From Escherichia coli (GTDB lineage: Bacteria; Pseudomonadota; Gammaproteobacteria; Enterobacterales; Enterobacteriaceae): a DNA stretch of 1,565 nt. A program made the translations under genes and the position numbers. The stretch lies in assembly GCF_024223415.1 (NCBI RefSeq), contig NZ_CP100510.1, one strand, 5' to 3'. This document shows positions 1-1,565 of the stretch, piece by piece (position 1 is the first letter of the stretch; every line of letters begins with the position of its first letter). The notes beneath the pieces were generated by a model, which was not told where the DNA came from, did not search any database, and saw only the letters and a list, made by a program, of their open reading frames with translations.

Positions 1-49
1 ATGTGCAAATGTAATACCGTCACCCGCGACGATATTCCGTTTGCCATCT

Positions 50-74
50 GGTCAGGGCTTCGCCCCGACACCCC
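50..74. repeat. 25-bp perfect inverted copy of the oriT hairpin segment (exact reverse complement of 1386-1410)
   Basis: GGTCAGGGCTTCGCCCCGACACCCC at 50-74 is the exact reverse complement of GGGGTGTCGGGGCGAAGCCCTGACC at 1386-1410. The asymmetric flanks (1 nt one side, 5 nt the other) also match, so this is a true inverted duplication and not just the hairpin's own near-palindromy. Identity stops exactly at both ends. Confidence 0.9.
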
Positions 75-110
75 GCATCAGTGCGTACGTGCTCAATGTG
101 GTTTCCGGTT

Positions 111-171
111 CTCTTCCGCTTCCTCGCCCACTCGCTCACTAACGTTCGGTCGCTGGGGCTGCGGCGAGCGG
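111..171. other. Conserved ColE1/pMB1 origin-proximal block (candidate primosome-assembly / single-strand-initiation site)
   Basis: CTCTTCCGCTTCCTCGC (111-127) and GGCTGCGGCGAGCGG (157-171) are identical to the flanks of the block CTCTTCCGCTTCCTCGCTCACTGACTCGCTGCGCTCGGTCGTTCGGCTGCGGCGAGCGG that I recall lying about 45-125 bp downstream of the replication start in pBR322/pUC (similar in p15A); the middle is diverged. Same orientation as the oriT match. Function as a pas/ssi site is inferred. Confidence 0.55.
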
Positions 172-476
172 TGCCACCTCTCGCATGTTGTCGGTGATTC
201 CGCTGTTGTTCTTTCGGGGATAAGTCGTCAGATAGCCCTTCAAACGCGCTCAGAAGCTCTCAGACGCACGAAACGGGGTTTAAATGCCCGTCAGGGCATG
301 GAAGGCGCGAAAAACGCTTACAGAGCGTTTCAGGAGGTCAGGCGCGCCGATACCCCTAGCCAGGGGCTTTCAGGTCGCCAGGAACCGCGCCAGCCCCCTG
401 CAAAGCCCATTTGCACGGTACAGGCAGCCACTCGGTTGGTAGGTGGTCGTAGACCGTCGGTGTTACAGCGATGGGG

Positions 477-559
477 GTCTGGGGTTCTCCCCAGACGGTT
501 TCCGGTTGCGCTCAAGGCGCTGCCGGAACCGTGGCGGCTCGATCGTTCTGGAGATCGGG
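477..559. ncRNA. Cluster of three consecutive GC-rich stem-loops; candidate RNA I / RNA II-like antisense-control region (strand, ends and function undetermined)
   Basis: SL1 477-496: perfect 8-bp stem GTCTGGGG/CCCCAGAC, loop TTCT. SL2 497-530: GGTTTCCGG...CCGGAACC outer stem (one bulged T) plus inner GCGC/GCGC stem, loop TCAAG. SL3 538-559: CGATC/GATCG core stem, 8-nt loop GTTCTGGA. Three hairpins in about 85 nt is the RNA I architecture. Weak convergent promoter candidates flank it (see findings). No canonical terminator found. Confidence 0.3.
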
Positions 560-622
560 GAGCAAAAACACGCAAGGGATTTTGAGGCGGCAAAAGAGCA
601 ATGCAGGATAGACAACCCGATG

Positions 623-640
623 TCAAATGTTAACATTTGA
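623..640. repeat. 18-bp perfect palindrome TCAAATGTTAACATTTGA in the AT-rich spacer between the gene's 3' end and the stem-loop cluster
   Basis: Exact self-complementarity across 18 bp, seen directly. Lies in a locally AT-rich island at about 600-670; function unknown (protein-binding site, unwinding element or promoter element). Confidence 0.9.
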
Positions 641-686
641 ATCAGATTGTCCAAAAACGGGGTTTTTGCCTGTGCCTGCCGCTGGC

Positions 687-1166
687 TCAATTTGAAAACA
701 TGGCCATGATTCGGCGCTGAATATCACCGTCTTTGTTGACCAGTGTTTTAGTGACAAACGCCGCGTAGTTTTTAGATGTGTTGTATCCCTTCCAGACTTC
801 ATGTGGATCGAGTGCATACGCACAAACCTTACCAGCAACAGGAATTCTGACTAACGCGTTTTTTGATTCTAAGTAGTTGAGCCAGCGCTTAATTGTGCTT
901 CGGCTAACACCCAATTTATCTGCTAAAAACTGCTGATCGGCAACAACAGCACCGCATGAGGGATCTATGTGCTCAGCTAAAAACGAGTAAAGCGGTATTG
1001 CTACAACTCCCTGCTTGTCCTTCGACAGTTCTCGGATCCTTTCCCAGCCCTTCTGATAAACCTGGGTGAATGGGCCGTTATTTTTCGGATCTGATTCCGA
1101 TTCTTTGTTTAATTTTTCCAGTTCTTTTAGACGCTTTTTTCGCTGCTCTTCAGTCCCGATATACAT
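687..1166 (-). CDS. 159-aa winged-helix (HTH) DNA-binding protein; best guess a small-plasmid replication initiator or autoregulatory maintenance protein (RepA of tiny pKL1-type plasmids, or RepL-like). Family assignment is from memory and unverified; a cargo transcriptional regulator is the alternative.
   Basis: Only long ORF with coding-like composition. ATG is the reverse complement of 1164-1166, preceded by a GGAG Shine-Dalgarno (rc of 1174-1177) with a 7-nt spacer; stop TGA is rc of 687-689. Helix-turn-helix at about residues 77-98 (DQQFLADKLGVSRSTIKRWLNY, encoded about 873-938) followed by a wing-like segment (ALVRIPVAGKVCAYALDP). N-terminal 30 residues are K/E-rich. Upstream region is dense in operator-like repeats. 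Confidence 0.8.
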   Translation of the reverse strand: MYIGTEEQRKKRLKELEKLNKESESDPKNNGPFTQVYQKGWERIRELSKDKQGVVAIPLYSFLAEHIDPSCGAVVADQQFLADKLGVSRSTIKRWLNYLESKNALVRIPVAGKVCAYALDPHEVWKGYNTSKNYAAFVTKTLVNKDGDIQRRIMAMFSN

Positions 1167-1185
1167 GGTAAATCTCCACGGTCTA

Positions 1186-1225
1186 ATGATGGCTCAAATA
1201 TAAGCCATCATAGCTCAAACGTAAA
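1186..1225 (-). promoter_or_regulatory. Candidate sigma70 promoter of the 159-aa gene overlapping a 9-bp perfect inverted repeat (candidate autoregulatory operator)
   Basis: On the minus strand: -35 TTTACG (rc of 1220-1225), 17-bp spacer, -10 TATATT (rc of 1197-1202), predicted start about 25-30 nt upstream of the ATG. Inverted repeat ATGATGGCT (1186-1194) / AGCCATCAT (1203-1211) has the -10 hexamer in its 8-nt spacer. GCTCAAA recurs at 1192-1198 and 1213-1219, 21 bp apart. Promoter assignment is by consensus match only. Confidence 0.5.
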
Positions 1226-1246
1226 CCATGATAGGTCGACCTAGCT

Positions 1247-1292
1247 CACACATGCGTGAGCTAACCTTAGACCACACATGCGTGAGCTAACC
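1247..1292. repeat. Two tandem 20-bp perfect direct repeats CACACATGCGTGAGCTAACC (1247-1266 and 1273-1292, period 26 bp); iteron- or operator-like
   Basis: Exact 20/20 identity seen directly. Each copy has internal dyad symmetry (CTCAC-ACATGC-GTGAG); the first copy extends to an 8-bp stem TAGCTCAC/GTGAGCTA. They lie 22-70 bp upstream of the predicted -35 of the gene. Related AGCTCA/TGAGCT half-sites recur at 1212-1217 and 1304-1309. Confidence 0.85.
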
Positions 1293-1355
1293 CATAATGC
1301 AAGTAGCTAAAAAATCAATAACTTACAAAATCGCCCTTAAATATCTTTTCTGCTG

Positions 1356-1385
1356 AAAGTGTTGCGCAAAGCGGAACACTTTTTT
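1356..1385 (+). terminator. Terminator-like hairpin followed by a T-run on the plus strand, directly abutting the oriT hairpin
   Basis: AAAGTGTT (1356-1363) pairs with AACACTTT (1375-1382), plus an inner CGC/GCG stem around an AAA triloop, followed by TTT (1383-1385) and then GGGG. The T-run follows the hairpin only on the plus strand. No convincing upstream plus-strand promoter was found, so the role is uncertain. Confidence 0.3.
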
Positions 1386-1446
1386 GGGGTGTCGGGGCGA
1401 AGCCCTGACCCAGTCACGTAGCGATAGCGGAGTGTATACTGGCTTA
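1386..1446 (+). other. ColE1/pMB1-type origin of transfer (bom/oriT): recognition hairpin plus conserved nic region; predicted nic CTGG|CTTA between 1442 and 1443
   Basis: GGGGTGTCGGGGCGAAGCCCTGACCCAGTCACGTAGCGATAGCGGAGTGTATACTGGCTTA matches my recollection of the pBR322 bom region (GGGTGTCGGGGCGCAGCCATGACCCAGTCACGTAGCGATAGCGGAGTGTATACTGGCTTA) with about 2 substitutions; the 36 bp ending at CTGGCTTA are identical. Imperfect hairpin GTCGGGGC-GAA-GCCCTGAC at 1391-1409. Which strand is nicked is assumed from the motif orientation. Confidence 0.8.
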
Positions 1447-1565
1447 CTCCTCTGCAAGCCTTACCAGCTGTGATTTTTGCCAGATTTCACGCTCTCAACG
1501 TTCAACAGCTCCATCATGGTTTTGCCGTCCGTTCACCGCTAAAACGCCTCAGAAATCGGGACAGG

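Follow-up and report, generated by a model that had tools for sequence, protein, structure and literature searches.

The DNA analysed here (the window) is a complete circular plasmid of 1565 bp from Escherichia coli. It belongs to the pKL1 family, a group of 1.2-1.9-kb plasmids that count among the smallest autonomous replicons and are common in Enterobacteriaceae from clinical and environmental sources. Its sole annotated gene is repA (687-1166, minus strand; ORF list and CDS WP_000275450.1), which encodes a protein of 159 amino acids and is preceded by a Shine-Dalgarno sequence, GGAG, read at 1174-1177 on the minus strand, 7 nt upstream of the ATG. The window is matched at 99.8-100% over its full length by more than 20 E. 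coli entries of 1565 bp in PLSDB and by one from Klebsiella. One of these, pEc45_4 (NZ_CP059129), is typed by MOB-suite/PLSDB as replicon Col(MG828) and as non-mobilizable, and it carries a single annotated CDS at 687-1166 on the minus strand, named 'helix-turn-helix domain-containing protein'; by both the ORF list and this annotated record, the RepA homologue is the only replication gene of the plasmid. The studied prototype of the same replicon type is pKL1 of E. coli KL4 (1549 bp, NC_002145; Burian et al. 1997, 1999, 2003), which is also typed as Col(MG828). A single blastn alignment with pKL1 spans window positions 38-1565 at 80% identity, colinearity extends over the entire length of both plasmids, and their RepA proteins are 78% identical (E = 3e-94). 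By tblastn, relatives of RepA are encoded in 580 PLSDB plasmids. Two records in this collection were considered as natural variants and rejected: NZ_CP027139 (1197 bp), which as a mini-replicon would have bounded the origin to 182-1378, is a linear record and therefore an incomplete assembly, and Klebsiella NZ_CP138471 (2967 bp), considered as a heterodimer with two co-resident specificity types, consists of the window plasmid interrupted after position 1446 by approx. 1.3 kb of unrelated sequence.

RepA appears to be a single winged-helix replication initiator and a probable autorepressor. In a Pfam scan, its match to HTH_36 lies just over the threshold (28.2 bits against a cutoff of 25), and MarR, GntR and other HTH families match below threshold; no match to Rep_3 (PF01051) was found at E ≤ 1, nor was there a Pfam match to Rep_1, Rep_2, Rep_trans or an HUH nuclease domain. 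An NCBIfam search returned sub-threshold HTH matches only, and a sequence search of the PDB gave no match at E ≤ 1. That the gene encodes a winged helix-turn-helix protein, as the original prediction held, is nevertheless borne out by the AlphaFold2 model, in which an N-terminal helix and a low-confidence linker precede a single winged-helix core (residues 38-127, pLDDT 80-94) made of three helices and a β-hairpin wing, with a predicted recognition helix at residues 89-101. When this model was submitted to Foldseek, only winged-helix proteins of the MarR/ArsR/CodY/TubR type (generic repressors and TubR) were retrieved, none at E ≤ 0.001. A distant relationship between RepA and RepL is possible: the RepL profile (PF05732) scores below threshold (16.8 bits against a cutoff of 20.3, E = 0.005), and relatives that are approx. 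51% identical to RepA by tblastn carry the PGAP annotation RepL.

Upstream of repA, a promoter scan predicts a -10 element, TATATT, at 1197-1202 and a -35 element, TTTACG, at 1220-1225, both on the minus strand and separated by a 17-bp spacer; this is the sole promoter-like site upstream of the gene, and 9 of its 12 positions fit the consensus. The -10 element is enclosed by a perfect 9-bp inverted repeat, ATGATGGCT (1186-1194) and AGCCATCAT (1203-1211), whose 8-bp spacer carries AATATA at 1197-1202, that is, TATATT on the gene strand. The original prediction had described exactly this arrangement, and the coordinates and the promoter scan agree with it. This promoter-proximal dyad (ATGATGGCT-N8-AGCCATCAT, 1186-1211), a putative operator, also covers the inferred transcription start at approx. 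1190. By itself, a 9-bp inverted repeat is not statistically unusual, as a perfect inverted repeat of at least 9 bp occurred somewhere in the sequence in 40 of 500 dinucleotide-preserving shuffles; its significance derives only from its position and from its conservation in relatives (see below).

The promoter dyad is part of a denser array of related motifs. Two phased units of 21 bp, 1186-1206 and 1207-1227, form a direct repeat of 21 nt with 76% identity, each unit containing T(G/A)GCTCAAA, with GCTCAAA starting at 1192 and 1213 and hence at a spacing of 21 bp. The half-sites TGGCTCA (1190-1196) and TAGCTCA (1211-1217) within these units resemble the arms of the dyads that lie farther upstream, and the TGGCTCA/TAAGCCA arms of the inverted repeat at 1186-1211 are likewise related to the dyad arm TAGCTCA. 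All four AGCTCA/TGAGCT hexamers of the plasmid (at 1212, 1243, 1257 and 1283) fall within 77 bp, while approx. 0.8 would be expected per 1565 bp; both these scattered half-sites and the 21-bp spacing of GCTCAAA had been predicted and were recovered at these positions. A terminator-like call at 1234-1205 on the minus strand was judged to be a by-product of ATGAT/ATCAT repeats and was rejected, as it has 3 GC pairs only and lies inside the promoter.

Farther upstream, the plasmid has two copies, and no more, of CACACATGCGTGAGCTAACC (1247-1266 and 1273-1292; spacing 26 bp), and this 20-bp repeat extends to 25 nt (1242-1266 and 1268-1292) with identity at 23 of 25 positions. In the proximal unit (1242-1266), the 22 bp at 1242-1263 (TAGCTCACACA followed by TGCGTGAGCTA) are a 10/11 palindrome with the core TAGCTCAC-N6-GTGAGCTA; the unit is a putative iteron-like, high-affinity RepA site. 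The distal unit (1268-1292), 26 bp away, reads TAGACCAC-N6-GTGAGCTA at 1268-1289. Its left arm, TAGACCAC, is degenerate, and therefore, of the claim that two identical 20-bp repeats spaced 26 bp apart are each an internal palindrome, identity and spacing stand, whereas the palindrome is fully present in the proximal unit only. The tandem repeat is clearly non-random, since the longest direct repeat found at a spacing of 10-60 bp in 500 dinucleotide-preserving shuffles averaged 7.9 nt with a maximum of 12 nt, and none of the 500 reached 20. Together, the two units also form an inverted repeat of 23 nt with 83% complementarity. The AGCT cores are 12 bp apart in these upstream dyads versus 8 bp in the promoter dyad, and one rigid dimer thus cannot read both classes of sites alike.

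Beyond the tandem dyads lies an AT-rich stretch (1293-1355, approx. 30% GC), a candidate DNA-unwinding region; in the composition profile, GC content is 0.30 for 1300-1359, whereas the remaining 60-nt windows between 1000 and 1539 range from 0.35 to 0.58. Where the region is richest in AT, an IHF consensus box, AATCAATAACTTA (WATCAANNNNTTR), lies at 1313-1325 on the plus strand; the plasmid has no other perfect match, and 0.06 would be expected by chance. The stretch is bounded by a hairpin at 1356-1382 with a 12-bp stem, followed by T6 on the plus strand. Thus, the functional region probably reaches past 1186-1292, the segment singled out by the original prediction, to include the IHF box and the AT-rich stretch. 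A search of the whole plasmid for the DnaA box TTWTNCACA with at most 1 mismatch gave 2 matches, both far from this region, against 2.65 expected by chance. An Rfam scan (E ≤ 1) gave only two sub-threshold chance matches, both outside the region, and no known antisense or control RNA.

The arrangement resembles that of pKL1. Burian and colleagues reportedly found that pKL1 RepA autoregulates and switches between a dimer and a hexamer. The two plasmids share the order of their elements: a hairpin, an IHF-like box, an AT- or T-rich stretch, two tandem palindromic repeats, the promoter and rep. In pKL1, the IHF-like box is TAAGTGGTTGTTT, followed by a T-rich stretch, and the palindromic repeats, TGTCGCATCCAGGATG and TGTCGCATCCTGGATGCGACA, are 25 bp apart, compared with 26 bp in the window; the hairpin lies at the same place as that at 1356-1382 but differs in sequence. 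According to the passage on pKL1 in PMC3832669, which cites Burian et al., the pKL1 oriV lies upstream of rep and combines a perfect inverted repeat of 16 bp with an IHF box and several sites for Rep binding; RepA hexamers are named in the title of Burian 2003. The published 16-bp inverted repeat appears to correspond to the two tandem dyads of pKL1, although the mapping of the published Rep sites is indirect. The dyad motifs themselves differ: TAGCTCAC..GTGAGCTA in the window versus TGTCGCATCC.GGATGCGACA in pKL1, which also has a third dyad, GCAACAAGGTGTTGC, over the -35 element. Around the -10 element, both plasmids carry the box ATGATGGCTTAnATTTGA, and the inverted repeat pairs at 9 of 9 positions in the window but at 6 of 9 in pKL1, where the right arm has decayed.

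Identity between the two plasmids is spread very unevenly along the sequence. The backbone is 92% identical to pKL1 at 1386-1565 and 85% at 1-686, and codons 63-159 of repA are 88% identical; identity then falls to 65% in codons 43-62, 53% in codons 1-42, 52% in the promoter/operator (1167-1241), 47% in the tandem dyads (1242-1292) and 54% in the AT-rich stretch and hairpin (1293-1385). Taken together, the binding sites and the beginning of repA (the first approx. 60 codons; window approx. 980-1385) are therefore one divergent cassette, with approx. 50% identity versus 85-92% elsewhere, whose outer edge is formed by the hairpin. Inside this cassette, the promoter dyad at 1186-1211 is a conserved island with 84.6% identity to pKL1. 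In the recognition helix, residue 93 is a lysine in the window RepA and an isoleucine in pKL1 RepA. Judged by these comparisons, the window plasmid is apparently a specificity variant of the known pKL1 system.

To extend the comparison, fourteen family plasmids (L003-L016) were taken across the range of RepA identity; with the window and pKL1 (L002), they represent twelve sequence types and, as L004 and L005 are near-duplicates, eleven independent lineages, with RepA proteins 47-100% identical. In 11 of 11 lineages, the 330 bp examined upstream of rep contain a pair of tandem repeats spaced by 24-26 bp, located at approx. -170 to -60 from the start codon. The spacing is 26 bp in 3 of the 12 sequence types, 25 bp in 8 (both L004 and L005 included) and 24 bp in 1. 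Comparison of repeat count and spacing in related plasmids had been put forward as a check of the original prediction; its outcome, two copies at 24-26 bp across the eleven lineages, agrees with what was seen in the window. An internal palindrome is visible in each repeat unit in at least 10 of the 11 lineages; the most divergent lineage, L011, has a weak repeat (14/20) and a less clear palindrome. While number and spacing hold, the sequence of the arms differs by lineage: TAGCTCAC / GTGAGCTA in the window and in L003, TGTCGCA in pKL1 and L008, TGTTGCAC in L013, GGACAC in L004 and L005, TTGAGACA in L006, ATACGACAC in L007, TTGTAAAC in L009 and TAGGAAACAC in L010. Nine of the 12 plasmids scanned have a match to the IHF consensus (0-1 mismatch) at 17-25 bp upstream of the first dyad, and two others have one in the reverse orientation. 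The variant with the GAGCTA-type motif is represented by 26 PLSDB records in which the region is invariant and by a further 10 records of the L003 type from Salmonella, E. coli and Enterobacter.

This upstream layout, in which an AT-rich stretch and mostly an IHF-like box precede two palindromic repeats and the rep promoter, is the only one of the non-coding features examined that all lineages share, and this is consistent with an origin of replication. It also bears on an alternative that we regard as unlikely, namely that the whole region is a transcriptional operator only, bound by RepA or a host factor, and that replication starts elsewhere, e.g., in a conserved ColE1-like backbone comprising 1383-1565 and 1-690. 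Such a role would suit a protein that resembles ordinary winged-helix repressors in its MarR-, ArsR- and GntR-type matches, it would suit the outcome of the DnaA box search, which was no better than chance, and the backbone segment 1383-1446 is indeed common to most family members. Outside rep, however, L006, L007 and L008 have no DNA in common with the window, and yet they keep the same layout, with the IHF box, the AT-rich stretch and the tandem dyads; the window plasmid is without another gene that could supply an initiator; and, in the passage of PMC3832669 already mentioned, the oriV of pKL1 is placed upstream of rep. An origin in the region upstream of repA is thus the better account of the family-wide pattern.

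Not only the layout but also the relation between the two classes of sites is maintained. In every plasmid, copies of its own dyad arm reappear across the promoter as half-sites that stand alone or in pairs. A matrix of k-mer sharing between plasmids is noisy because the motifs of different lineages are related, and a permutation test was used instead: dyad 6-mers occur 69 times in the promoter-proximal region of their own plasmid versus 26.5 ± 9.0 under permuted plasmid pairing, and dyad 7-mers occur 36 times versus 11.0 ± 5.4, values reached in each case by 2 of 20,000 permutations. The covariation is weak for some lineages, the own-iteron rank in the sharing matrix being only 4 for pKL1 and L004.

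The Salmonella plasmid L003 shares with the window both the recognition helix SRSTIKRW and the GAGCTA dyad motif. On the gene strand, the window promoter reads TTTACG-TTTGAGCTATGATGGCT-TATATT-TGAGCCATCAT and the aligned L003 promoter TTTACT-TTTGAGCTAAGGTAGCT-TATTTT-TGAGCTACCAA, so that TTTAC of the -35 element is kept. Around the -10 element, L003 has a 7-bp inverted repeat (GGTAGCT/AGCTACC) that is kept via two compensatory double substitutions, and three copies of TTTGAGCTA at 21-bp spacing occupy the same place as the 21-bp units of the window. Moreover, the dyad pair of L003 is inverted relative to the gene, which a symmetric protein-binding site would tolerate.

The recognition-helix region of RepA varies across the family at positions 88-90, 93-94 and 97-98, whereas no variation is seen at T91, L99 and E100 and almost none at I92. 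pKL1 and L013 combine SRSTIIRW or NRSTIIRW with TGTCGCA or TGTTGCA motifs, and four positions (I44V, S48L, I57L and K93I) separate the RepA proteins of the window and L003 from those of pKL1 and L013. There is, however, no simple code from helix to motif, since in L008 a motif like that of pKL1 goes with a different recognition helix.

These results suggest that 1186-1355 is the combined oriV and repA promoter/operator of a miniplasmid of the pKL1 family (Col(MG828)), a reading to which we assign a probability of roughly 0.78. A dual role is proposed because RepA is homologous to pKL1 RepA and has a winged-helix model, and because lineage-specific dyads recur in the promoter region. The original prediction had offered a choice between an autoregulatory operator alone and iterons of a Rep-dependent origin; the comparisons appear to favour both roles together, whereas iterons in the classical sense are disfavoured, the units being two and dyad-symmetric and RepA not being a Rep_3 protein.

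According to the mechanism that we propose, RepA would recognise the half-sites T(A/G)GCTCA / TGAGCTA, and the pair of 22-bp dyads at 1242-1263 and 1268-1289, with a centre-to-centre distance of 26 bp, would serve as initiator sites for RepA dimers. IHF would bend the DNA at 1313-1325 and, together with the occupied dyads, would promote opening of the AT-rich DNA at 1293-1355, which in turn would allow host replication proteins to load. As the level of RepA rises, the protein would fill the weaker, 21-bp-phased half-sites TGGCTCA (1190-1196), TAAGCCA (1201-1207) and TAGCTCA (1211-1217). The chief promoter site would be the 18-26-bp dyad at 1186-1211, which wraps the -10 element and the inferred start; because it covers both, its occupancy is proposed to block RNA polymerase and would shut off repA transcription, thus controlling copy number by autorepression. 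We infer the division of the sites into those for initiation and those for repression, the site of melting and the order of occupancy. The two spacings of the AGCT cores fit, without proving it, the idea that pKL1 RepA acts as a dimer and as a hexamer.

The roles of the two classes of sites could also be reversed or merged, with the tandem dyads serving as the autoregulatory operator (e.g., for a RepA hexamer) and initiation proceeding via the promoter-proximal 21-bp sites and the AT-rich/IHF region. The 21-bp phasing of the promoter-proximal units is closer to iteron phasing than is the 26-bp spacing of the dyads, and the hexamers named in the title of Burian 2003 make two binding modes plausible; nevertheless, the promoter-proximal sites overlap the -10 and -35 elements and the inferred start, the classical position for repression, and it is the dyads that adjoin AT-rich DNA in every lineage and an IHF-like box in nearly all of the plasmids scanned, which makes this arrangement improbable. 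Least probable is that the palindromes are not protein-binding sites but structural signals (cruciforms or hairpins, either in a rolling-circle double-strand origin or for priming on single strands), as might be suggested by the palindromic nature of each unit, by the 23-nt, 83% complementary inverted repeat that both units form and by the annotation of distant relatives as RepL, which is known from small plasmids of Firmicutes, given that RepA, a 159-amino-acid winged-helix protein in the AlphaFold2 model, has no HUH, Rep_1, Rep_2 or Rep_trans domain by Pfam and only a sub-threshold RepL match, and that arms varying with the recognition helix and recurring as promoter half-sites are not predicted by a purely structural role. 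None of these three alternatives fits the family data as well as a combined oriV and operator.

A combined origin and operator has parallels in better-known replicons. In the iteron plasmids with Rep_3 initiators (pSC101, R6K, F, P1 and pPS10), the initiator binds repeats beside an AT-rich region and an IHF site, and it represses its own promoter via an inverted repeat. The same logic is proposed for the window, where an inverted repeat related to the dyads overlaps the rep promoter. The components nonetheless differ in several respects: Rep_3 initiators have two winged-helix domains, whereas the RepA model has one and no Rep_3 match; classical iterons are at least three asymmetric direct repeats of 17-22 bp with a phase of approx. 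22 bp, as opposed to two palindromic units at 26 bp; and classical iteron origins carry a DnaA box, for which the search of the window plasmid found nothing beyond chance. In ColE2-type plasmids, the Rep specificity region and the cognate origin reportedly vary together, an observation attributed to Hiraga et al. in 1994. ColE2 Rep is a primase of approx. 300 amino acids that acts on a single 32-bp origin. Thus, as in the window and pKL1, related ColE2-type backbones differ in a matched initiator segment and binding site, although the fold of the protein and the anatomy of the origin are unrelated to those of the window plasmid. A further comparison is with pAES1 of Paracoccus, whose Rep has an HTH_36 domain and is 46% identical to pKL1 RepA (PMC3832669). 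Inverted repeats containing direct repeats are placed analogously upstream of its rep, and the origin regions of pAES1 and pKL1 show no nucleotide similarity (PMC3832669). pAES1 differs from the window plasmid in being larger and in carrying a MOBV relaxase.

The system as such is already known from pKL1, and the interpretation given in the original prediction matches pKL1. To our knowledge, the GAGCTA-type specificity variant, the cassette-like divergence from pKL1 and the family-wide occurrence of two dyads at 24-26 bp have not been described. A tentative joint reading, which we consider possible but rather less than probable, is that the binding sites and the specificity part of RepA are exchanged as a cassette (approx. 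980-1385) between near-identical backbones. Under this reading, I44, S48, I57 and K93 (the last in the recognition helix) would be candidate specificity residues, the window plasmid would have a new initiator-site specificity and probably represent a new incompatibility group, and the AGCT sites spaced by 12 and 8 bp would be read by different oligomeric states of RepA.

The results add comparative support to an old model that was based on a single plasmid, pKL1, and overturn nothing. Treating 1186-1355 together with repA as a whole replication and control module would be useful for annotation, as the region lacks annotation in every record examined, for incompatibility typing, as Col(MG828) lumps several apparent specificities, and for the design of compatible mini-vectors. 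If the exchange of cassettes proves true, these plasmids would be a minimal natural system in which to see how an initiator with a single winged helix acquires new targets and how it switches between initiation and repression.

The plasmid has a mosaic relationship to the studied prototype pKL1. Identity between the two falls to approx. 50% in window 980-1385, the cassette that carries the repA 5' end and the operator, whereas it reaches 85-92% elsewhere; therefore, exchange by recombination is implied, in which the 5' end of rep would have moved together with the origin and operator. A repeat search placed a hairpin with a 12-bp stem, followed by T6 on the + strand, at window 1356-1382. As judged from its sequence, this element is terminator-like and would serve transcription heading away from repA. 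pKL1 has a hairpin in the same place, although its sequence is different, and in several lineages a hairpin lies directly upstream of the region containing the predicted IHF box.

The adjoining segment (window 1383-1446, GGGGTGTCGGGGCGAAGCCCTGACCCAGTCACGTAGCGATAGCGGAGTGTATACTGGCTTA) exhibits 86-100% identity in most family plasmids upon sequence comparison, including members whose backbones are otherwise unrelated. A PLSDB search with the window returned 4013 partial matches, many of which are probably explained by this shared segment. It resembles the bom (oriT) region of ColE1/pBR322, including the nick site. In plasmid typing, pKL1 is classified as 'mobilizable', whereas the window plasmid is classified as 'non-mobilizable'. 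The Klebsiella plasmid NZ_CP138471 (2967 bp) consists of the window plasmid and approx. 1.3 kb of unrelated DNA (its positions 1447-2787), which sequence comparison shows to be joined exactly after ...CTGGCTTA at window 1446. Because this insertion point is located at the putative oriT nick region, oriT-mediated recombination is suggested.

The bom-like segment is also overlapped by one arm of a 34-nt inverted repeat (GGTCAGGGCTTCGCCCCGACACCCC..., 88% complementary) found by repeat search at window 50-83 and 1377-1410, the arms of which flank a segment crossing the record start. Further copies of its 25-nt core were detected in relatives by sequence comparison. Window 104-177 (TTCCGCTTCCTCGCCCACTCGCTCACTAACGTTCGGTCGCTGGGGCTGCGGCGAGCGG) resembles the part of pBR322/ColE1 that follows directly downstream of the ColE1 origin and contains sites for primosome assembly; this stretch might have a role in lagging-strand priming. 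Window 1-585 is GC-rich, shares 85% identity with pKL1, and appears in the ORF list as a putative + strand ORF of 194 amino acids whose ATG start is at base 1 of the record. An extra 'hypothetical protein' is annotated in two of the records identical to the window plasmid (H4 and H16 of the PLSDB matches).

Among the Col(MG828) plasmids, the more distant ones, 1.8-1.9 kb in size, contain a second small gene behind rep, annotated at 811-1098 in the record of NZ_CP140634; sequence comparison revealed no counterpart of this gene in the window plasmid. According to work cited in PMC8148099, the pKST21 family requires two rep genes. The plasmids listed in that paper include two Col(MG828) plasmids from one E. 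coli strain, which hints that members of the family may co-reside.
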